From: Patescibacteria group bacterium
GTDB lineage: Bacteria > Patescibacteriota > Patescibacteriia > UBA1558 > UBA10009
Direction: 5' to 3'
NCBI GenBank assembly: GCA_018818425.1
Contig: JAHISB010000026.1
Location: forward strand, 525-64,524
Length of the DNA: 64,000 nt
The translations under genes were made by a program, and so were the position numbers. Under the pieces are notes generated by a model. That model searched no databases, was not told where the DNA came from, and saw nothing but the letters and a program-made list of their open reading frames with translations. How positions within the stretch are numbered: position 1 is the first letter of the stretch; each line of letters opens with the position of its first letter. Shown one piece after another: positions 38,127 to 52,223 of the stretch.

Positions 38127-38187
38127 CCCTGCCCGCTCATTCGAGTCTGAGAGTTTATCCTTCAGAGTCGAAGACCAGCAGGCGCGG
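38127..38187. repeat. palindromic REP/MITE-like element, family D copy 1 (CCTGC..CATTCGAGTCTGA...TCAGAGTCGAAGACC.GCAGG)
   Basis: Copies at 41996-42056 and 44790-44850 (inverted); core-less 'footprint' palindromes CCTGCCTGCCGGCAGG at 6011-6031 and 51489-51505. Confidence 0.7.
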
Positions 38188-38988: not shown

Positions 38989-39852
38989 TTAATTAATATT
39001 TAATTTCTTAAGCGCTGCTTGAAAAATCTCTTTAGCGTTCTCGTAGTCAATCATTTCTAAGGCCCGGTCTTTAGTTACCCATTGGGCGTCTTTAATTTCC
39101 GGTTCGTCGGTTATGGTTAAATCGGCATCGGTTGTTTCGATTAAATAATAATGAACGGTTTTAGGCACCGGGCGCTTATTGGGTTCATTAACCTTAATAT
39201 CGATACTGCCTAAATAACCTTTATTTTGAGTATTGGTTATGCCCACCTCTTCGCAAATTTCACGCTGGGCCGCTTTTTCTTTATCCTCGTTATCTTCGAT
39301 ATGGCCTTTGGGGAAAGTCCATTTATCATAAGCGTCCAAGACTAAAACAAATTTGACCTTATCGCCTTCTATCCGATAAACCACTCCGCCGGCCGAATAT
39401 TCCCGAGGCGGTTCTGTTTCAAACTCCTTTTTTTCGCCGCCTTCCTGCATCTCTTTAAAAACACTGCCCAAAACTCCATTAACAAACTTGCCCGACGACT
39501 CTCCGCCATAAGTTTTAGCCAGTTCAATAGCTTCGTTAATGGCTACTTTGGGCGGAATATCATCAGCTATTTTTAATTCATAAATACCCGTTCTTAAAAC
39601 ATTTCTGTCGACAATGGTAATTTGTTCAATGGGCCATTCGGGAGCATATTTTTTTATTAAGCCATCTATCTCTTTAATATTTTCGGTTACTTTAGTTAAA
39701 AGATGTTCGGAAAATCCCTGGTCATCAAAATCAGGAGCAAATTCCTTTCTGTTATTCTCCAAAATTTTATGGATATTTTCAGATTGCTGGTTAAAATCCC
39801 ATTGAAATAAGCTTTGAAGAACTAAAGTTCTGGCTAAATGTCTGTTAGACAT
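38989..39852 (-). CDS. nusB: NusB antitermination factor fused to a C-terminal NUDIX hydrolase domain
   Basis: N-terminal roughly 135 aa NusB (ARTLVLQSLFQWDF...AINEAIELAKTYGGESSGKFVNGVLG), then a Nudix domain with box GHIEDNEDKEKAAQREICEEVGI. Confidence 0.75.
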   Translation of the reverse strand: MSNRHLARTLVLQSLFQWDFNQQSENIHKILENNRKEFAPDFDDQGFSEHLLTKVTENIKEIDGLIKKYAPEWPIEQITIVDRNVLRTGIYELKIADDIPPKVAINEAIELAKTYGGESSGKFVNGVLGSVFKEMQEGGEKKEFETEPPREYSAGGVVYRIEGDKVKFVLVLDAYDKWTFPKGHIEDNEDKEKAAQREICEEVGITNTQNKGYLGSIDIKVNEPNKRPVPKTVHYYLIETTDADLTITDEPEIKDAQWVTKDRALEMIDYENAKEIFQAALKKLNIN

Positions 39853-39967
39853 AAATTTTGAATTTCTAATTTTGAATTTCGATTTAATTTTTACTTATTT
39901 AATTTTGAAGCTGTTTCGAAATTCGGTTTTCAAAATTTATTCGAAATTCAAAATTCAAAATTAATTC

Positions 39968-40186
39968 CTATTTTTCTTTTTTTTCTTTCTTTGCTTTTTT
40001 ATCTAAACTGGACTTTATCTTTATCACCTCGCGCCCCTTGTAATAACCGCAAAACCGGCAGGCTCTGTGAGCCAGGATCGGCTTTTGGCATTTAGGGCAT
40101 TTGTTTAGGCTAGATTTTTTTAAAGCAAAATGCGAAGCTCTCCTTTTTTTAGAAGATTTTGTTCTTTTTTGCGAAGGAAGTCCCAT
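39968..40186 (-). CDS. rpmF: 50S ribosomal protein L32
   Basis: MGLPSQKRTKSSKKRRASH...CPKCQKPILAHRACRFCGYYKGREV, bL32 zinc-ribbon pattern. Confidence 0.8.
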   Translation of the reverse strand: MGLPSQKRTKSSKKRRASHFALKKSSLNKCPKCQKPILAHRACRFCGYYKGREVIKIKSSLDKKAKKEKKEK

Positions 40187-40458: not shown

Positions 40459-41525
40459 CCTACATTTTACCCTTTACCCTCAAGCGCAACACTTGGTAAT
40501 TTAGTTGATTTAGTATAAAGCTCATTAAAAACTTCTTTTGGCGTTTTATACCCAAGTTTTTTTCTAGGCGTATTATTCATCATTTCAATAATAGCAGAAA
40601 TTTGTTCCTGTGAGTAATTAGCGAGCGAAGCTCGCTTGGGAATAAAGCGCCGCAGGCGGCCAAAAGTATTTTCAATAATCGGTTTTTCCCATGAGGAATA
40701 CGGATGGCAGAAAAAGGTTTCAACATTTAGTTTTTCATACTTAGCGTTTTCCACGCCATTATCAAGTGTCATTGATTTAACTATTTTCTGATGCGGACTC
40801 AAAACATCTTTCAGTCCGTCCATAGAATATTTCAATCTGGCTGCCTTGAGCCCCGGTAGAAAAAGGGATTTCCGCTCTACTGCTCCAACGAATGTCTCCT
40901 GCTCGTATTTCGGTCGTCCCAGAGTATCGCCTTCAAAATCGCCAAAACGTTTCTGCTCGGCGACTATATCAGGGCGAAAATCAATAAATACGCGGTTAGG
41001 AATGATAGTTTTAGCAATTTTGATTGTTTGTCTCTTCTTTGGATGATAACGTTGATGCGGCAGATATTTACATAAATACTGACCACGGCTGGAATAGCAG
41101 AATTTATAAACGCTTTTAGCCGAGATAACAGCTTGGCCGTTATTAAGATAAGCGATGCGGCCGGCAACTTCCTCCGGCGACCAATTAGCCATCAATCCGA
41201 CAGCCACTTTAATTTCCAGGTTCGGATTATCGACAATTTTCATTCCCTGGTATTTTGACATTCTGCGTTTCAATCGAGCCTTGGTTTGCGCTTTGCGCGG
41301 GTCATAGGCGTCCCTCGCGCTATTAGTCTTGATTTCTCTGCTTACCGAAGAGTGGTTCTTCCCAATAGCTCTTGCTATATCCCGATGGGAATAACCTTTC
41401 TTCAGTAGGATGGAGATTTCATCTCGATCCGACTGTTTGAAGTGTTGATAACTCATAGTATTTTATTAATTGGTTTTGCCAATTATACTATACCTGAGTG
41501 TTGCACTTCAAAGGTAAATTTACGG
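40459..41525 (-). mobile_element. IS30-family insertion sequence (about 1.07 kb) with imperfect roughly 30-bp terminal inverted repeats
   Basis: Left end ...CCTACATTTTACCCTTTACCCTCAAGCGCAACACT (40459-40493) is inverted relative to the right end AGTGTTGCACTTCAAAGGTAAATTTACGG (41497-41525). Single transposase ORF inside. Confidence 0.65.
40467..41456 (-). CDS. IS30 family transposase
   Basis: N-terminal HTH (SHRDIARAIGKNHSSVSREI), DDE catalytic region typical of IS30 (DFEGDT..., ...LDNGVENA...), 329 aa. Confidence 0.8.
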   Translation of the reverse strand: MSYQHFKQSDRDEISILLKKGYSHRDIARAIGKNHSSVSREIKTNSARDAYDPRKAQTKARLKRRMSKYQGMKIVDNPNLEIKVAVGLMANWSPEEVAGRIAYLNNGQAVISAKSVYKFCYSSRGQYLCKYLPHQRYHPKKRQTIKIAKTIIPNRVFIDFRPDIVAEQKRFGDFEGDTLGRPKYEQETFVGAVERKSLFLPGLKAARLKYSMDGLKDVLSPHQKIVKSMTLDNGVENAKYEKLNVETFFCHPYSSWEKPIIENTFGRLRRFIPKRASLANYSQEQISAIIEMMNNTPRKKLGYKTPKEVFNELYTKSTKLPSVALEGKG

Positions 41526-42083
41526 AATCCAGCATTTTTATAAAAGATATTAGACCCGGCGCCATAAACTGGCGCTAAATAAAGATGCTATTTTGGTTCT
41601 GCGTCCACGACAAGCATGGGGATTATTACCAGCGCTTTTTATCCGGCTAGACAGCTCGTCTGACTTGCTCGATACGTGCTAGTAATAATTTTCTTGGACG
41701 CAGTACCAGCATAGTGTCTTTTTAAATTTCCAAATGTTTGATATTTGTTTATTTCGCTGATAATCGCCGAGATGCGCTGAGGTACGCGGATATTCGCTCG
41801 CCTCGAGCGAAGTCGAGAGGCGAAGCGGGCTGATAATCGCTGAAAAGTTGAATAATCCATTCATCAGCGTATATCCGCGCGTATCCGCCAATGGTCAGCG
41901 CTTCTCCGCGTCTATCTGCGATTTTTTATTTTGGAATTTGTAATTTATTTGTTATTTGGAATTTGGAATTTGTTTGTAACTTGTGGGTTGCCGTGCCTGC
42001 TCATTCGAGTCTGAACCTGAGGGCTCATCCCTCAGAGTCGAAGACCGGCAGGCAGGTATCTTGTATCTTATTTTATTGATATT

Positions 42084-44686: not shown

Positions 44687-44971
44687 ATAATTTAAAGTTA
44701 TTACTTGCTTAAGTGTTTGTTATTATACTAAATTTTTCCTGTTTTTACAAGTTAATTTGTTGATAAGTGAAAAATGATGATCTGCGACCCCTGCCTGCCG
44801 GTCTTCGACTCTGTGGTATGAGCCCTTAGGTTCAGACGGATGAGTAGCAGATATAATCCATTTCTATAACACAAAAACAGCTCCTTTTTACAGAAGATGT
44901 TTTGGATATTAAAAAATTAGTTAGTATTTGGAAATTAGAAATTGAGATTTGGAAATTCCCCCGAAGGGACG

Positions 44972-45047: not shown

Positions 45048-45833
45048 TTAGTCCAAATTATTAGTGCCTTCTCTTTGTTTTATTAAATGATCAATTTCTC
45101 TTTCTTGCTCATTTATATTATCGATAAAATTTCCGTTATCACTTCTTTTATACTTGAAGAGATTTTTGGCAATTTTTATTAAACTTAAAGCGTTTTTTAA
45201 ATCTTCTATTGTATCTTTATCTCTAAGTAGTAAGGCTGTTGTATAAAGATTGATCCATCCTTGACCTAAAATTTTATCGGAATATTCTTTAATAACATCT
45301 TTTGCATAAATGTACATTGGTAAATCAGCTGTCATTTTATCTTCTAATTTTAAAAAGTCCCTTGGCTCTATAATAGTAGCTGACCCTTTTATATACTGGC
45401 ATCTGACATAATCTATTATTAAATCTCTAAAAAAATCATACCTGTACCAAGGTTTATATCTCTCTGAAAGATGTTTTTTTTCGTTGTGAAGCTGAGGTGT
45501 GTATCTTTTATACTTCAATTCACTTAAATCCTCTAAATGAATTGGCTTATCTTTAAGCCAAAAAAGATATACTGGAATTGGAGATCCTTCCCAATATTTT
45601 ATTGTACTCTTTTTAAGATGAGGTTCGTTTTGTGTATATTTTACCTGGACATAAAAAAGTAAATTTGTAGGATACTGATCTCTTATAAGTTCACAAATAA
45701 AATCATTTCCTATATCCATACTTCCATCTATTTTATGTACCAAACAAAATTCCGATAAAAGATATTGGACAAAAGATTCGCCAATATTTCCTTTTCTTTT
45801 TGAATCAATATATTTAGGAAGGTCTTTTTTCAT
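45048..45833 (-). CDS. DUF4365-like protein with predicted PD-(D/E)xK restriction-endonuclease-like N-terminal domain
   Basis: N-terminal GNIGESFVQYLLSEF..VHKIDGSMDIGNDFICELIRD..LLFYVQVKYT pattern (E19, D40/D44, E48, K65) fits DUF4365/PD-(D/E)xK; C-terminal half helical. AT-rich codon usage like the adjacent helicase gene. Confidence 0.5.
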   Translation of the reverse strand: MKKDLPKYIDSKRKGNIGESFVQYLLSEFCLVHKIDGSMDIGNDFICELIRDQYPTNLLFYVQVKYTQNEPHLKKSTIKYWEGSPIPVYLFWLKDKPIHLEDLSELKYKRYTPQLHNEKKHLSERYKPWYRYDFFRDLIIDYVRCQYIKGSATIIEPRDFLKLEDKMTADLPMYIYAKDVIKEYSDKILGQGWINLYTTALLLRDKDTIEDLKNALSLIKIAKNLFKYKRSDNGNFIDNINEQEREIDHLIKQREGTNNLD

Positions 45834-45894
45834 AAACTTATTTAGAGTCGGGCAGAGTGTATTTATATACCTAATCTGTGCTTATAGATATTTA

Positions 45895-48800
45895 TTATTC
45901 AAGATAAAGAGTATAGCCACTTTCTCGTAACTTTCCATCCTTAATCAGTTTTTCAATAGTTGTACTTATAATTTTAGTGTCCTCTGACCAATTCCTGTTT
46001 AAACTGAATAATCCCATAACAGCTTTAGGCAGGTGTTCTTTAGCAAAACCAAATTGGTCTTCTACGAGATATAATACCGAATTAGCAATCTCATAAGGTG
46101 AGATTTGCTCAAGGCTTCTTTGGACTTCATCCGTGGGCAATCGAAAGTCATCGGCTTCAAGACCATTAGCATATAGAAACCCTTTTTGTGTGTATATTTT
46201 ACGACCTCGCGATAACAGTTGGACTGCATTTTTTACATTACTTTTAATGTTTGAACCTGCTTTCATTACTCCACATATTTCCTTGAGGCGATTTATTAAA
46301 AGTGACTCATAAATTGGAGACTCGATCTGGACAATTTTAAAAATTAAATTAGCGAGATTTAGCTGTTGAGATTTATTTAATAGATATTTTGTGTTTGATT
46401 TTCTTGATTGTTCATACTTAATATATGGTTTACCCGAGGAGTATTGTTTATTTGGTGATAGTTCTTTTGAGTTGATTGAATCGAACGAATTATTTATATT
46501 ATCTTGCTCTTTTCGTTGAGAGGTCTTTAAGGGGGGTGCCTGAATTGATTCTATACTGGGTGATTTAAGGGCGTTATTTGCACTTTTAATTATGTTATTC
46601 AGCGTATCTTCTCTATTACGAAACCAATCGGTTGACCATACCCTATGTATTTTCCAGCCCTGGTTTTTAAGTACCTGCTCCCGTATTATATCCCTGTCTC
46701 TAGCCGTTCTAGCGCTATGATAGGTGGCTCCGTCACATTCAATACCTAATAAATAACGATCTTTGTCTCGTGTATCTCTAATTGCTAAATCGATACGATA
46801 ACCACTCGATCCAATCTGCTCATCTACAATGTATCCTCTATCTTTTAAAGCTACGGCTACTCCATCCTCAAAGTCATTTGTTTCGTAGTCTGATAATGTA
46901 ACTGGTTCGGCAGGAATGTTCGCATCACGCTCCGAATACTCTATATAGTTTTTTAACATTATGGCGCCCTTATTTCCCGGGTTGACTCCAGCCAGTTCAC
47001 GACTTTGCATACTTGTAACTAATATCGTTTGCCATTTAGCTCTAGTGACTAGAACATTTAATCTGCGCCAACCACCCTCTTTGTTTAAAGGGCCAAAATT
47101 GAAGCTTAGAGCGCCTTCCGGTGTTTTCGCGTATCCAATACTAATAATTATAGTATCTCGTTCATCACCTTGAACATTTTCAAGCGACTTTACAAAGAAA
47201 GGTTCTGCTTTATTTTTATCAAATAGTGGCGTAAGTGTAGGTTTTGCCGAAAGTAAGTCGTCTAAAGCATATTCGATAGCCTCTTTTTGCGAAGCATTCA
47301 TTGCAGCTATGCCAATTGATCTGTCAGGGAATTCATCTAATTGTTGAATAACAGTCTCTGCCACTTTTTTTGCCTCAACTTTATTTGTACGACTTTTACC
47401 TCTATCCCAAGTACCTTCTGGTGTATATATCAAATGAATACCACGACCCTTGCTTGAAGTTGTTGCAGAAGGAAAGGTAATTAAGTGGTTATCATAGAAA
47501 TAGTGATTAGAAAACTTAATTAAACGTTCATCTTTACTTCGATAGTGCCATACAATTTTTGACTCTTCAAAAATGGGTCTGACCGCGACACAATTATCGA
47601 GCAGTGATTCAAGAGGTTCATAATCATCGTAATCATCACTTTCCTCTTCTTCAAGAAAAATTGAGGAAGCCTTAAAAAACGATGTCGGAGGTAATTGTTT
47701 TTCGTCTCCTGCTACCACTACCTGTTTCGCTCGTAATATTGATGGTATTGCCTCCGCGGTCGGTAATTGTGATGCTTCATCGAAGACAACCAAGTCAAAA
47801 TTAATTGATCCCGGTTTAAGAAATGTTGAAACAGATAGTGGACTCATAAGCATACAGGGTTTTAACGCCTGTAACACTCTTGGAATTTCTGCAAATAGTT
47901 TGCGAAGAGGCTTAAAACTTTTCTTTTTTTGTAGTTCTTTTTGAAGTATTCCAATTTCGCTGTGGTTTCCAGTCGTTGAACGCGCAGTTACAACTCCGCT
48001 CGCGGGGTCAGCAGCACCAGATTGTATATTCCTTAATCTTGATTTACCAATCTCTTCTTGAAGATCTTTAAATCTAGCTATTTGTTCTTCTCGTAAGCTC
48101 CCAGCAAACTCTTTTAAGCCAGGATTTTGATCCATAATTACTTCTACCCATCGCGAATAAAACTTTTTTTCAAAGATTATTGAAGCATTTGACGAACTCA
48201 CAGAGTTGAGTGAATTTAACAGTTCACCTAAATCAGAATCTTTACATTTTGAAATTGTCGCCTGTAAGACTTCCCACTCGTGTAATTTATTAAATGAGGA
48301 GAGTATTTCTTTAATTCTAGTAATTACCTTGATTATCGTGGTATTGAATAACGGTTGCTTATTATCAGTGAAACCATCTGGCCAATGTTTTTCTATATCT
48401 TTTATAATTGAAATTAATTCTACGTCTTGAATCATTTGAGATAAGAAAAACAGCGACTTTCTTATATTGTCATCAAGTATTTGATTTTCCTTGGGTTCGT
48501 TTATGATATTTTGTAGTATGGCCTCTTTAAGTTTGATGGCGGCCTTGTATTCAATTATTTGTAGCTTTAGATCCGTTGGCTCTATTGATCTTGTAGAATA
48601 GGTATGTAAATTATTATTGTTGTTCACTAACCATTTGTCTATTCCGATAATATCTTCACAAATTTTACTATAGTTTAATAATGATGAGTAAGTTATTTTG
48701 ATTCCCGGTTTTAGACTTGTTCGAAGCGAAGAGTGCCAACGCCAATAGCTAGGTTTAAAAAACCTTGTCCATAATGAGAATTCTGATTTTAAAGATTCAA

Positions 48801-50670
48801 GTAATTTTTGTAATTCTATGGGTTCAATTTTTGCAATATTCTGGTATTCTTTTTGTAAGTTCTGTTTTTTTATTTGCTTGTTTAATGCTTCCTCAAGTAA
48901 AGACACTGCCTTATTTAATTCTTGGATATTTAGTGCGCGCCATTCTGGAGGAAGTTCCTCGGTTTGCGATAAATACGAAAATACATCTCCTAATTTTGAT
49001 AAGTTTTCAAATGTAAAACCTGGCCATTGGGATATTACCAAGTCAGCTAGTTGGTTCAATTTTAAATTAATTTCTATATATTTTTCAAGGATATTTTTAA
49101 GTCCTCGTTTCAATATATCTACAGAAAGTTGAGTTTTAGAATCCCGCATAAATCCTCTCCAAGGATGTTTTTTTCGGGAATCAAAAACTGTCGATTGTGA
49201 CTCAAGACTCCTTAGTAGTTCTAGCTTTTTCTCAAGTTGCTCCTTGCTTACTCGTGTGACATCTGCCCAAGGTAGATCAAAATCAAGATCTCTATAACTA
49301 TGGTATTTTTCGATTAAACCTATAGCATTATAAATTGTTTTACCTAGAGGGTCTTTTTTGGAATGAATTTCTTTGACGTAATTATTAAGATTATTTCTAA
49401 TTTTTATAAGCTCCTCCAACTCGTCATTAAACGTATCACTGGTTCTTGTCACAGGTGATTCAATTGTTTTTTTTAATTCATCAATAATTTTTGTTTTTCC
49501 AGCCTTTGTACTATGTGCCTCTAGGCAAAAGCGACCCAGCCCAAGTTTTACTAATCTATCATAGACTACATCTAATGCAGCCATTTTTGCGCTGACAAAT
49601 AATACCTTTTTGCCTTTTCCTAAAGTATCAGCAATCAAATTAGAAATAGTTTGACTTTTTCCCGTACCAGGAGGGCCGTGAACTACTAAGTTTCTTTCTG
49701 CTGTAGCAATTGTTAATGCGTGTAATTGACTTGCGTCTGCGGGTAGAACTGGAATGGGCACGGTTTCTGGAGTTTCCATTTCGTCTAAATCCTCCCCTAA
49801 AGCTTCTGATGTTTCAGATTCTTTGTTTGCGTTCGCAAAGGCTGCAACAATTTTATTATTATAAGCTTCTTCAATCATATTTCCTAAATCAGTGTAGATA
49901 ACAAGTGATTCAAATGAGAATGTGCTTAGCCAAGTATTGTCTACTACTCGCCAGTTTTGCTCTGATGTCTTTTTTTGTACGGCGTCTAAAAATTGTTTAA
50001 GTGATTCTTGATTGGGCTCATCTATAAATTCAGGATCTATAAATTCAGGTAGGTTTACGTGATGTCTCTCTCGTAAATAAAGTTTTAATGCTGGATTAAC
50101 TTGTAGTTCCTCGTCAGACATTTTTAAAAGCATATGTGAATTGGAGCCTCGATTTTCCAATTGACAGGGAACTAATAGTAATGGTGAGGATGATTCGCCT
50201 AAAATTGGATCATCCCATTCTAAAAGGCCAAACGTTAAGTGTAATGTAGTTACACCCCTTTCTTCTAGTGTTGTTCTGCCATTATCATAAATTCGTCTCA
50301 TTATTCTGAATAAGTCTTTGGGTTCGGATTTAAATTCAATATCACCCGGCTTAACAATGTATTCGGGTTCCTCATCTTCTTCTAAGAGTTTATTTTGGTT
50401 TAACTCTTCATCCTTTCTTTTTCTTTTATTCTTTCTTTTTACAATTGGCATTTTGAGCGAGTGGGCATCTATAGCTATTGAGCTAAACAATTCTCCCGTT
50501 TCGGGCTTAATGGTAAGTAGTTTACTGACTCTGGATCGGTTTATTCCAAGCAATGGATTGCCCTTACTCAAATCTAATAAACGTTCGCGCCATTTTTTTA
50601 TCTGGGCATCTATACGTTCTATGTTTATTGTAGATTTATTTGTTGTATCCACTTTTTTTGTATATATCAT
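45895..50670 (-). CDS. 1591-aa multidomain helicase-nuclease: DUF4011 N-domain, SF1B Upf1/Dna2-like helicase (AAA_11/AAA_12), Vsr/DUF559-like PD-(D/E)xK endonuclease domain, DUF3320 C-domain
   Basis: Walker A VHGPPGTGKSQTISN, motif II VVFDEASQLP, motif V/VI QGDERDTIIIS and VLVTRAK. Nuclease block YRIDLAIRD...LLGIECDGATYHSARTARDRDIIREQVLKNQGWKIHRVWSTDWFRN (DUF559/Vsr-like). AT-rich relative to flanking genes. Confidence 0.85.
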   Translation of the reverse strand: MIYTKKVDTTNKSTINIERIDAQIKKWRERLLDLSKGNPLLGINRSRVSKLLTIKPETGELFSSIAIDAHSLKMPIVKRKNKRKRKDEELNQNKLLEEDEEPEYIVKPGDIEFKSEPKDLFRIMRRIYDNGRTTLEERGVTTLHLTFGLLEWDDPILGESSSPLLLVPCQLENRGSNSHMLLKMSDEELQVNPALKLYLRERHHVNLPEFIDPEFIDEPNQESLKQFLDAVQKKTSEQNWRVVDNTWLSTFSFESLVIYTDLGNMIEEAYNNKIVAAFANANKESETSEALGEDLDEMETPETVPIPVLPADASQLHALTIATAERNLVVHGPPGTGKSQTISNLIADTLGKGKKVLFVSAKMAALDVVYDRLVKLGLGRFCLEAHSTKAGKTKIIDELKKTIESPVTRTSDTFNDELEELIKIRNNLNNYVKEIHSKKDPLGKTIYNAIGLIEKYHSYRDLDFDLPWADVTRVSKEQLEKKLELLRSLESQSTVFDSRKKHPWRGFMRDSKTQLSVDILKRGLKNILEKYIEINLKLNQLADLVISQWPGFTFENLSKLGDVFSYLSQTEELPPEWRALNIQELNKAVSLLEEALNKQIKKQNLQKEYQNIAKIEPIELQKLLESLKSEFSLWTRFFKPSYWRWHSSLRTSLKPGIKITYSSLLNYSKICEDIIGIDKWLVNNNNNLHTYSTRSIEPTDLKLQIIEYKAAIKLKEAILQNIINEPKENQILDDNIRKSLFFLSQMIQDVELISIIKDIEKHWPDGFTDNKQPLFNTTIIKVITRIKEILSSFNKLHEWEVLQATISKCKDSDLGELLNSLNSVSSSNASIIFEKKFYSRWVEVIMDQNPGLKEFAGSLREEQIARFKDLQEEIGKSRLRNIQSGAADPASGVVTARSTTGNHSEIGILQKELQKKKSFKPLRKLFAEIPRVLQALKPCMLMSPLSVSTFLKPGSINFDLVVFDEASQLPTAEAIPSILRAKQVVVAGDEKQLPPTSFFKASSIFLEEEESDDYDDYEPLESLLDNCVAVRPIFEESKIVWHYRSKDERLIKFSNHYFYDNHLITFPSATTSSKGRGIHLIYTPEGTWDRGKSRTNKVEAKKVAETVIQQLDEFPDRSIGIAAMNASQKEAIEYALDDLLSAKPTLTPLFDKNKAEPFFVKSLENVQGDERDTIIISIGYAKTPEGALSFNFGPLNKEGGWRRLNVLVTRAKWQTILVTSMQSRELAGVNPGNKGAIMLKNYIEYSERDANIPAEPVTLSDYETNDFEDGVAVALKDRGYIVDEQIGSSGYRIDLAIRDTRDKDRYLLGIECDGATYHSARTARDRDIIREQVLKNQGWKIHRVWSTDWFRNREDTLNNIIKSANNALKSPSIESIQAPPLKTSQRKEQDNINNSFDSINSKELSPNKQYSSGKPYIKYEQSRKSNTKYLLNKSQQLNLANLIFKIVQIESPIYESLLINRLKEICGVMKAGSNIKSNVKNAVQLLSRGRKIYTQKGFLYANGLEADDFRLPTDEVQRSLEQISPYEIANSVLYLVEDQFGFAKEHLPKAVMGLFSLNRNWSEDTKIISTTIEKLIKDGKLRESGYTLYLE

Positions 50671-50841: not shown

Positions 50842-50917
50842 TGGGGTGGCTACTGGGAATCGAACCCAGGTTTCCGGGACCACAACCCGGTGCACTAACC
50901 GTTATGCTATAGCCACC
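50842..50917 (-). tRNA. tRNA-His (anticodon GTG), with encoded G-1
   Basis: rc: G-GTGGCTA..CCGGG-TTGTGGT-CCCGG..CTGGG-TTCGATT-CCCAG-TAGCCAC-C-CCA; the extra 5' G pairing with C73 is diagnostic for tRNA-His. Confidence 0.85.
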
Positions 50918-51007
50918 ACGATTAAAAAGTTACAAGATACAAATTCCAATTTCCAAACAAATTACAAATCTCAAATTTTAAATTCCAAATAACTTATTTC
51001 TGGGAAT

Positions 51008-51062
51008 TTGGTGATTTTCCGCCAAGGGGATTTGAATCCCTCGGCACGGCTCGGGACAGGCC
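51008..51062 (-). pseudogene. tRNA-like fragment (T-arm-like TTCAAAT loop and ..CACCA end) without a complete cloverleaf
   Basis: rc ...CCGAGGGATTCAAATCCCCTTGGCGGAAAATCACCA; no matching 5' acceptor strand, A53 instead of G53. Confidence 0.3.
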
Positions 51063-51084
51063 TACACATAAAAATAAAGGGATT

Positions 51085-51161
51085 TGGTGCGCCTGAGAGG
51101 AATCGAACCTCTGGCCTCAAGCTCCGGAAGCTTGCGCTCTATCCAGTTGAGCTACAGGCGC
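51085..51161 (-). tRNA. tRNA-Arg (anticodon CCG)
   Basis: rc GCGCCTG-TA-GCTC-AACTGGAT-AGAGC..CAAGC-TTCCGGA-GCTTG..AGAGG-TTCGATT-CCTCT-CAGGCGC-A-CCA. Confidence 0.85.
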
Positions 51162-51320
51162 GGGTAGGTCGAACCCCTTATAAATATTTAAACTATTAAA
51201 TCTTTATAAAAATAGATGGTTTACCATCCGTAGCGTCAACCTAGTTAAACGCCACTTGGTATATTAACGATTTTGTCCTACCTCGCCAAAACTACAAATA
51301 TTAGACACTGACGCGAAGGA

Positions 51321-51395
51321 TGGTGACCCCACGGGGAATCGAACCCCGGTTGCCAGGATGAAAACCTGGTGTCCTAACCACTAGACGATAGGGCC
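51321..51395 (-). tRNA. tRNA-Glu (anticodon TTC)
   Basis: rc GGCCCTA..GTCTAGTGGTTAGGAC..CCAGG-TTTTCAT-CCTGG..CGGGG-TTCGATT-CCCCG-TGGGGTC-A-CCA. Confidence 0.85.
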
Positions 51396-51462
51396 AAGAT
51401 TAATTTTGAATTTTGAAAATAGAATTTTGAATATGTTAATTTGCGTCAACCAGGATGCCTGC

Positions 51463-51947: not shown

Positions 51948-52223
51948 ATGAATTCAACTATTATTAACATCAAAACTAACCCTAAAGTTAAAAGTGAGGC
52001 CAAAAAAACAGCAGCTGATCTAGGGCTATCTTTAAGCGGAGTTTTAAACGCCTATCTTCGGCAGTTTATCAGAACCAAGTCTGTTTATTTTAGTTTGAAT
52101 GAAGAAAATCCCTCCCCTTATTTATTAGAAGCTTTAAAGGAATCGGAAAAACAGAGAAAAAAGAAGGGGGTTCACTCTTTTGATAATCCTGAAGAGGCAA
52201 TTCATTTCTTAAAAAATACATAG
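51948..52223 (+). CDS. type II antitoxin, RelB/DinJ family
   Basis: Ribbon-helix-helix N-term and DinJ-like KSEAKKTAADLGLSLSGVLNAYLRQFIRTKSV; 4 nt upstream of the toxin gene. Confidence 0.65.
   Translation: MNSTIINIKTNPKVKSEAKKTAADLGLSLSGVLNAYLRQFIRTKSVYFSLNEENPSPYLLEALKESEKQRKKKGVHSFDNPEEAIHFLKNT

Follow-up and report, generated by a model that had tools for sequence, protein, structure and literature searches.

DUF4365/DREN nucleases form the killing module of the SPARDA systems, of the integron-borne Divona protein and of a toxin associated with extracellular contractile injection systems (eCIS). Mutagenesis has placed the DREN catalytic site of NbaSPARDA at D41/Q60/K62 (PMC12205087) and that of XauSPARDA at E37/D41/Q62/K64 (bioRxiv 10.1101/2025.04.08.647717). 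The DUF4365 domains of these two systems are non-specific nucleases; in both, the DREN domain taken alone is a monomer without activity and tetramerisation activates it (PMC12205087; bioRxiv 10.1101/2025.04.08.647717), the rest of the SPARDA complex serving to switch the domain on. In EAT16, the eCIS-associated toxin of Photorhabdus, the motif DxGxD...QxK comprises D42/D46/Q66/K68, and toxicity was lost when three of these four residues were mutated singly (PMC11297309). Divona is a single-gene DUF4365 anti-phage system from the chromosomal integron of V. cholerae and has been validated as such (bioRxiv 10.1101/2024.07.02.601686). Here we set against these systems a gene for a 261-residue DUF4365 protein, located at positions 45048 to 45833 on the minus strand of a 64,000-nucleotide (nt) stretch of DNA, the window, from a Patescibacteria group bacterium (GenBank assembly GCA_018818425.1, contig JAHISB010000026.1, positions 525 to 64,524).

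The gene lies 61 nt downstream of an open reading frame (ORF) for a 1591-residue helicase-nuclease, on the same strand. An earlier note on this DNA described the product as a DUF4365-like protein of PD-(D/E)xK fold, co-oriented with the helicase-nuclease, and suggested that it may act with that helicase as a sensor, an effector or a second nuclease, adding that accessory genes of this sort often mark new subtypes of defence system. The fold and the orientation are borne out and the partnership is not. On balance we favour, with rather more confidence than doubt, a different reading, in which the product works on its own as an accessory nuclease of mobile and defence islands, controlled through its C-terminal domain.

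The ORF is a real gene and not a chance reading frame, because 107 strong homologues of near-uniform length (E 1e-36 to 1e-81, 37-57% identity) were retrieved from 5.8 billion clustered proteins. These are nearly always 250-290 residues long and align to the 261-residue protein from end to end. NCBI lists an identical entry under the name 'DUF4365 domain-containing protein [Patescibacteria group bacterium]'. The approximately 107 full-length members come almost entirely from assemblies of Patescibacteria, the candidate phyla radiation (CPR), among them Daviesbacteria, Collierbacteria, Roizmanbacteria, Moranbacteria, Kaiserbacteria and Dojkabacteria by name; a few metagenome-assembled genomes that carry the gene have non-CPR labels. 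The distribution is patchy and the family is very AT-rich. A phage or plasmid origin of the gene was considered and rejected: no family homologue occurs in 50,697 phage records or in the viral structure predictions of BFVD, and the lone plasmid match, from Nostoc, is distant and covers the N-terminal domain only.

On the evidence of sequence and model, residues 1-120 are a DUF4365/DREN PD-(D/E)xK domain with an apparently intact catalytic site. The assignment is made because the Pfam score, a profile alignment to SPARDA DREN chains, an AlphaFold2 model with its Foldseek matches and four conserved catalytic positions all point to it. The Pfam family DUF4365 (PF14280) is matched over residues 17-93 at 31.2 bits, the gathering cut-off being 24.3, and the same family is precomputed for nearly all 107 homologues. 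The sole PADLOC match is to Aga_REase, at profile positions 4-98 of 429, which correspond to the N-terminal restriction endonuclease part of an Argonaute-associated protein. An alignment of 35 family members supplied the profile, the conservation columns and the AlphaFold2 model. This profile retrieves the solved SPARDA DREN-APAZ chains 9qbq/9qcc, 9jsb and 9qbp, and all motif positions are matched in the alignments to 9qbq and 9jsb.

The catalytic motif DxGxD...QxK reads D40-I-G42-N-D44 and Q63-V-K65 here, in the register given by the hidden Markov model (HMM) alignment to 9qbq_A and 9jsb_D. Gly42, Asp44, Glu48, Gln63 and Lys65 are invariant in the 35 sequences, and Glu19 and Asp40 are at least 90% conserved. 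Asp40, Asp44, Gln63 and Lys65 are the counterparts of the published catalytic residues of NbaSPARDA, XauSPARDA and EAT16. Helix 1 carries Glu19, strand 2 carries Asp40, Asp44 and Glu48, and strand 3 the Q63-V-K65 segment, followed by a conserved YW..S.IP segment. The model has a mean predicted local distance difference test (pLDDT) score of 89.2 and a predicted template modelling (pTM) score of 0.82, with helices at 10-26 and 75-81 and strands at 30-34, 44-51, 54-67 and 88-94 in this half of the protein. In a Foldseek search of the PDB the only significant matches are SPARDA DREN domains (9qcc, 9jt2 and 9qbp; E 6e-5 to 1e-3), each with probability 1.0 over approximately 120 aligned columns and with 18-26% identity. 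The residues quoted in the earlier note (GES.., HKIDGSMDIGNDFICEL and YVQVK) are present, but the spacing it gave as E, D, D/ExK is in fact DxGxD...QxK, with glutamine before the lysine, and the nuclease domain spans some 120 residues instead of the N-terminal 70.

The remainder of the protein is helical, as the note had said. The model places helices at residues 131-148, 182-206, 209-226 and 234-260, with two short ones between the first and second of these, and Phe134, Asp141, Tyr142, Arg144, Gly150, Tyr184 and Trp193 are conserved in the alignment. This half of the protein has no match in Pfam, NCBIfam, PHROGs or PADLOC, and Foldseek searches with it against the PDB and BFVD returned non-significant helical-repeat noise only. 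A second profile, built from the C-terminal region alone, was searched against 1.84 billion representative proteins and found 18, of which 17 are members or fragments of the same approximately 260-residue family; the other is an unrelated protein of 1262 residues, matched weakly over a 33-residue stretch. At the sensitivity of HMMER, then, the C-terminal domain is specific to the DUF4365-helical family as far as sequence comparison reaches, and no convincing pairing with another N-terminal domain was seen. The pTM of 0.82 suggests that, in the model, the two halves pack as a single unit.

How might such a protein work? The predicted metal-binding and catalytic site appears complete, with Asp40, Asp44, Gln63 and Lys65 supplemented by the conserved Glu19 and Glu48, and by analogy with the DREN domains of SPARDA and EAT16 the most likely activity would be Mg2+-dependent DNA cleavage. 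The helical C-terminal half would take the place of APAZ and Argonaute, and may control assembly or oligomerisation, impose autoinhibition, or recognise a trigger or target. We assign it a putative control function because isolated DREN domains are monomeric and inactive until they tetramerise. The most likely biological role would be that of a single-gene nuclease directed against mobile elements, either restriction-like or abortive in mode, and this is our best guess because of the patchy distribution, the extreme AT-richness, the island-like contexts and the precedent of Divona. In this genome the gene would have landed, probably as a separate acquisition, beside a helicase of PDC-S37 type in a low-GC (guanine plus cytosine) islet next to a tRNA cluster.

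Several questions bear on this proposal. Do family members keep company with particular genes? Is the protein a conventional restriction enzyme, or an appendage of other defence systems? Is it tied to the helicase upstream? Loci holding family members elsewhere, designated L001 onwards, were compared on these points. Clustering of the neighbouring ORFs revealed no universal or single conserved neighbour, the largest non-self family being present in five loci. Among 125 neighbours from 37 loci the commonest Pfam family, ResIII, occurs only five times, and Argonaute is not among the top neighbour families. The neighbours are heterogeneous and often defence-related or mobile, and include AAA_14-DUF4143 proteins, a Schlafen AlbA_2 protein, PIN-TPR-GreABC, an Mrr_cat protein and large serine recombinases; some loci, L057 being one, hold housekeeping genes only, for example pheST or serS. 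The serine recombinases are homologous to one another. In four non-redundant loci (L001:18594-20264, L003:7697-9031, L010:17808-19397 and L013:1-1151) they are found close to a DUF4365 homologue, within approximately 1 kb in L003 and L013 and at 7-8 kb in L001 and L010. Resolvase, Recombinase and Zn_ribbon_recom domains were confirmed in the L003 and L013 proteins. Since recombinases stand near family members in four loci, there is a hint that at least some copies of the family are carried on integrative elements.

The protein might instead be a classical restriction endonuclease, a possibility that we regard as doubtful. It would then be the R subunit of a type II system, paired with a methyltransferase encoded next to it, or else a type IV enzyme that depends on DNA modification, as Mrr does. 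Methyltransferases do directly adjoin some homologues (D12 in L006, L013 and L043, N6_N4 in L009 and L026), the PD-(D/E)xK fold would suit such an enzyme, and the association of family members with type I restriction-modification (RM) genes recalls the immigration control region of E. coli, where Mrr adjoins the hsd genes. Set against this, no methyltransferase is adjacent in the window or in most loci, and the types differ from one locus to another. Pfam and Foldseek searches of the C-terminal half revealed neither a known reader of modified bases nor a known DNA-binding domain, and those DUF4365 domains that have been characterised are nucleases without specificity. A cognate type II pair was rejected as a general explanation, in that the window has no adjacent gene with a methyltransferase domain and such genes accompany a minority of loci and fall into differing classes.

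Tight spacing to large defence genes is seen in several loci. In L002 and L006 the DUF4365 gene is embedded between hsdS and hsdR of a type I RM system, a layout that recalls the E. coli prr type I locus, in which the anticodon nuclease PrrC is embedded between hsdS and hsdR. Other inserts also occupy the interval between hsdS and hsdR in these two loci (L002:2-5296 and L006:5063-15421), namely 184-185-residue proteins without assignment and AAA_14-DUF4143. L006 has in addition, upstream of hsdS and after hsdM, an unannotated 471-residue protein and the D12 methyltransferase, which lie between these two genes. L003 carries a fused HsdM-HsdS-HEPN(AbiU2) protein of 1067 residues and then a PDC-S06 ATP-binding cassette (ABC) ATPase that ends 2 nt before the DUF4365 gene, and in L058 another PDC-S06 ATPase lies 1 nt upstream of the homologue. 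These PDC-S06-type ABC/AAA_13 ATPases, of 754 and 826 residues, are found at L003:3823-6087 and L058:3519-5999 on unrelated contigs. L009 encodes type III Mod and Res with the DUF4365 gene 59 nt downstream of Res.

A further recurrent neighbour, here termed f6, is an unannotated family of approximately 815 residues encoded upstream of DUF4365 homologues at L005:6666-9113, L019:976-3423 and L040:3844-6279. The copies tested, in L005 and L019, have no Pfam match, and PADLOC gives a single weak match to Csx1 (L040, E 4e-4). The C-terminus of f6 has a Zn-ribbon (CPSC…CKGC) and a PD-(D/E)xK-like D…ECK motif. In L005 the DUF4365 homologue lies 16 nt downstream of f6. The f6 copies have diverged to 30% identity, whilst the linked DUF4365 proteins are 52-58% identical.

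On the basis of such contexts the protein might be a portable add-on, a latent nuclease carried 3' of large defence genes of the DNA-tracking or NTPase (nucleoside triphosphatase) kind that are unrelated to one another, as a back-up or abortive effector in the manner of PrrC. Its partners would be type I and type III RM systems, PDC-S06 ABC ATPases, the f6 Zn-ribbon nuclease and, in the window, the PDC-S37 helicase; triggering or inhibition of the front-line system would release it, and the helical domain would sense the state of that system or interference with it. The placement between hsdS and hsdR and the intervals of 1-2, 16, 59 and 61 nt are in favour, as is the co-occurrence of f6 with the family in three loci despite the divergence of f6. 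We nevertheless judge this explanation unlikely. A single conserved C-terminal domain would need unrelated interaction partners, and many loci lack an adjacent large defence gene (L008, L012 and L030, in addition to the housekeeping setting of L057). CPR genomes are compact, with long co-directional runs and common RM genes, so the base rate of tight adjacency to RM genes is high, and that adjacency is given here as raw counts.

Could the gene instead be a selfish, free-standing element resembling a homing endonuclease, moving between intergenic sites with no part in host defence? The scattered genomic contexts would fit, but there are no flanking repeats or att-like duplication and no intron or intein context, and homologues are absent from the phage records and viral structure predictions searched; we consider this very unlikely.

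The relationship with the helicase was assessed from both sides. The helicase itself matches the PADLOC profile of PDC-S37, a single-gene candidate, with 1215.5 bits from end to end (residues 18-1586 on profile positions 4-1542 of 1550). It scores 1210.7 against NCBIfam ProA, below the cut-off of 1500 and over profile positions 348-1903 only, the N-terminal 350 or so residues of ProA being missing from the window helicase, and 796.2 against NCBIfam Hhe, below the cut-off of 2000. Literature searches on PDC-S37 and on the origin of the name 'ProA' yielded no usable account. The helicase retains an intact Walker A motif and intact PD-(D/E)xK nuclease motifs of its own, all of them conserved with orthologues. 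The helicase family is very large, exceeding 5,700 proteins at E<=1e-50.

Forty-eight loci of the DUF4365 family were examined, 12 of them from genomes, 32 from metagenomes and 4 on further contigs; in 35 the sequence extends at least 1 kb upstream. The helicase is absent from all 48 by tblastn; as a positive control, a query of no more than its last 330 residues recovers orthologues with E-values of 1e-88 to 1e-108. Conversely, no PF14280 gene lies near any of the seven closest helicase orthologues with long contigs, at 53-55% identity, and the family HMM has no match in six-frame translations of these seven loci. Directly downstream of the orthologues are a DUF3276 gene, unannotated genes for 345, 179 and 85 residues, an exonuclease VII gene, or convergent genes. 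There is, then, no conserved co-occurrence of a DUF4011 helicase with a DUF4365 gene in either direction, and the adjacency appears specific to this genome. In the 48 loci family members occur without a DUF4011 helicase, the kind of pattern that the earlier note had itself named as telling against its proposal; the nuclease-fold similarity it expected is present. Partnership is not supported because of these two absences and because the helicase is full-length with a nuclease of its own; a dedicated partnership was rejected for want of co-occurrence, and the two genes are probably not a dedicated pair. That the protein is a dedicated second nuclease, sensor or effector of the helicase in a two-gene defence subtype is highly improbable, notwithstanding the shared strand, the short gap free of a terminator-like hairpin and the joint AT-rich islet beside tRNAs, given the comparisons above, the single-gene PDC-S37 match and a GC difference of 7.6 points between the two genes.

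Certain observations weigh against full autonomy of the accessory nuclease and should be set beside the proposal. In several loci the homologue lies 1-60 nt downstream of a large NTPase or nuclease gene of defence type (PDC-S06, type III Res or f6), and this tight spacing could reflect a recurrent add-on role. In the window the gene is co-oriented and close behind the helicase; co-transcription of the two is possible, and some functional interplay in this organism may occur. No immunity or modification gene is evident. The figures for defence-gene neighbours are raw counts, and we caution that nuclease activity, its control and a part in defence are properties that we infer for the DUF4365-helical family.

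The features of the locus are listed in Table 1.

Table 1. Features of the DUF4365 locus in the window, with the basis for each and base composition (GC, and GC3 at third codon positions).
Feature	Coordinates	Strand	Basis	GC	GC3
DUF4365/DREN-type nuclease gene, 261 residues, ATG start	45048..45833	minus	ORF, homologues, Pfam, AlphaFold2 model	27.9%	19.5%
C-terminal helical domain, residues ~122-261	45051..45470	minus	AlphaFold2 secondary structure; family-only profile matches		
N-terminal nuclease domain, residues ~1-120	45474..45833	minus	Profile alignment to 9qbq_A and 9jsb_D, Foldseek, invariant columns, published catalytic residues		
AT-rich spacer, 61 nt, helicase stop to DUF4365 start	45834..45894	minus	Sequence; promoter/terminator scan		
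Superfamily 1 (SF1) helicase-nuclease, 1591 residues (DUF4011, AAA_11/AAA_12, MTES_1575 REase, DUF3320), PADLOC PDC-S37 type; neighbour, not demonstrated partner	45895..50670	minus	Pfam, PADLOC, NCBIfam, motif comparison	35.5%	26.9%
tRNA-His, tRNA-Arg and tRNA-Glu cluster, border of low-GC two-gene islet	50842..51395	minus	Rfam		
Flanking host genes				38-43%	36-47%

The spacer between helicase and DUF4365 gene contains no terminator-like hairpin, and the promoter/terminator scan of it is at background level. On the flank of the two-gene islet away from the tRNAs, which are the only Rfam matches, are ordinary host genes (HSP20, DUF3006 and VanW). The interval from 45 to 46 kb is the most AT-rich part of the window, at 27.8% GC. 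The earlier note described the gene as AT-rich like the helicase. Both are indeed below the host genes in GC, but the DUF4365 gene is clearly the lower in GC and in GC3. Both genes look acquired, and the gap between 27.9% and 35.5% GC suggests that they were acquired separately. Integration targeted to a tRNA was rejected, as no att-like repeat of the tRNA-His 3' end was found and no direct repeats bound the islet.

Repeats are present in the spacers around the islet. A GC-rich intergenic element of approximately 50 nt (…GTCTGAACCTNAGGGCTCAT…CAGAGTCGAAGACCGGCAGGCAGG…) occurs in three copies, at 38147-38183 (plus), 42009-42056 (plus) and 44790-44837 (minus), the last within the 360-nt spacer that follows the DUF4365 gene. 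The copies at 42009 and 44790 are 94% complementary over 48 nt, and the element matches no Rfam family at gathering score. AT-rich tandem motifs of the 'ATTTGGAAATT' type are found in the intergenic sequence at 39846-39970, 41720-41983, 44910-44957, 50927-50991 and 51399-51431. One pair, 44925-44957 and 50959-50991, forms an inverted repeat (33 nt, 85% complementary) that brackets the helicase and DUF4365 genes. The same motif is present in other spacers, which makes a local intergenic repeat more probable than the termini of an element.

Two further ORFs lie in the vicinity. One, at 40467-41456 (minus), 3.6 kb from the DUF4365 gene, encodes 329 residues and is transposase-like, its translation having by eye the look of the IS30 family; it is flanked by a repeat-rich spacer at 41640-42080. 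The other, at 51948-52223 (plus), just past the tRNA cluster, encodes 91 residues and suggests a toxin-antitoxin module on the far side of the tRNAs because by eye it resembles a ribbon-helix-helix antitoxin of the RelB/DinJ type.

Neither the domain family nor its catalytic motif is new, standalone DUF4365 defence proteins have been described before, and the gene already carries a DUF4365 annotation. What is new is modest: an architecture nearly restricted to the CPR that joins the same catalytic core to a different, otherwise unseen helical module of approximately 140 residues. If active, the protein would be a compact, 261-residue case of Argonaute-independent control of a DREN nuclease, and would add to a very small set of defence candidates in Patescibacteria. 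In annotation, the helicase and DUF4365 genes should not be labelled a new two-gene system.

Comparison with described systems places the protein as follows. PDC-S37, Hhe and ProA resemble the neighbouring helicase, not the DUF4365 gene, and are families with no DUF4365 component. With the DREN-APAZ proteins of SPARDA (NbaSPARDA, 9jsb/9jt2; XauSPARDA, 9qcc; EaeSPARDA, 9qbp) the protein shares the Pfam family, the PD-(D/E)xK fold, the catalytic D/E-x-G-x-D...Q-x-K positions and the downstream YW..S.IP segment. It differs from them at the low identity already noted and in its length of 261 residues as opposed to some 440-460, and an unrelated helical domain stands where SPARDA has APAZ. Foldseek alignments to the DREN-APAZ chains end at about 120 columns, so no APAZ domain was found, and an Argonaute gene (MID-PIWI) is not among the neighbours in the window, which are the DUF4011 helicase, HSP20, DUF3006 and VanW. 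Membership of SPARDA was rejected on these two grounds, the missing APAZ domain and the missing adjacent short Argonaute. EAT16 has in common with the protein an N-terminal DUF4365 domain bearing the DxGxD...QxK motif, but is secreted, as toxin cargo of a contractile injection system, and there is no eCIS context here. Divona differs in its C-terminal part, which is crr6-like (PF08847), a family with no match in the 261-residue protein at E<=1; this distinction is drawn from the description of Divona and not from its sequence. In other respects the arrangement is the same, both proteins being standalone, with an N-terminal DUF4365 domain joined to a different C-terminal domain and no dedicated partner.

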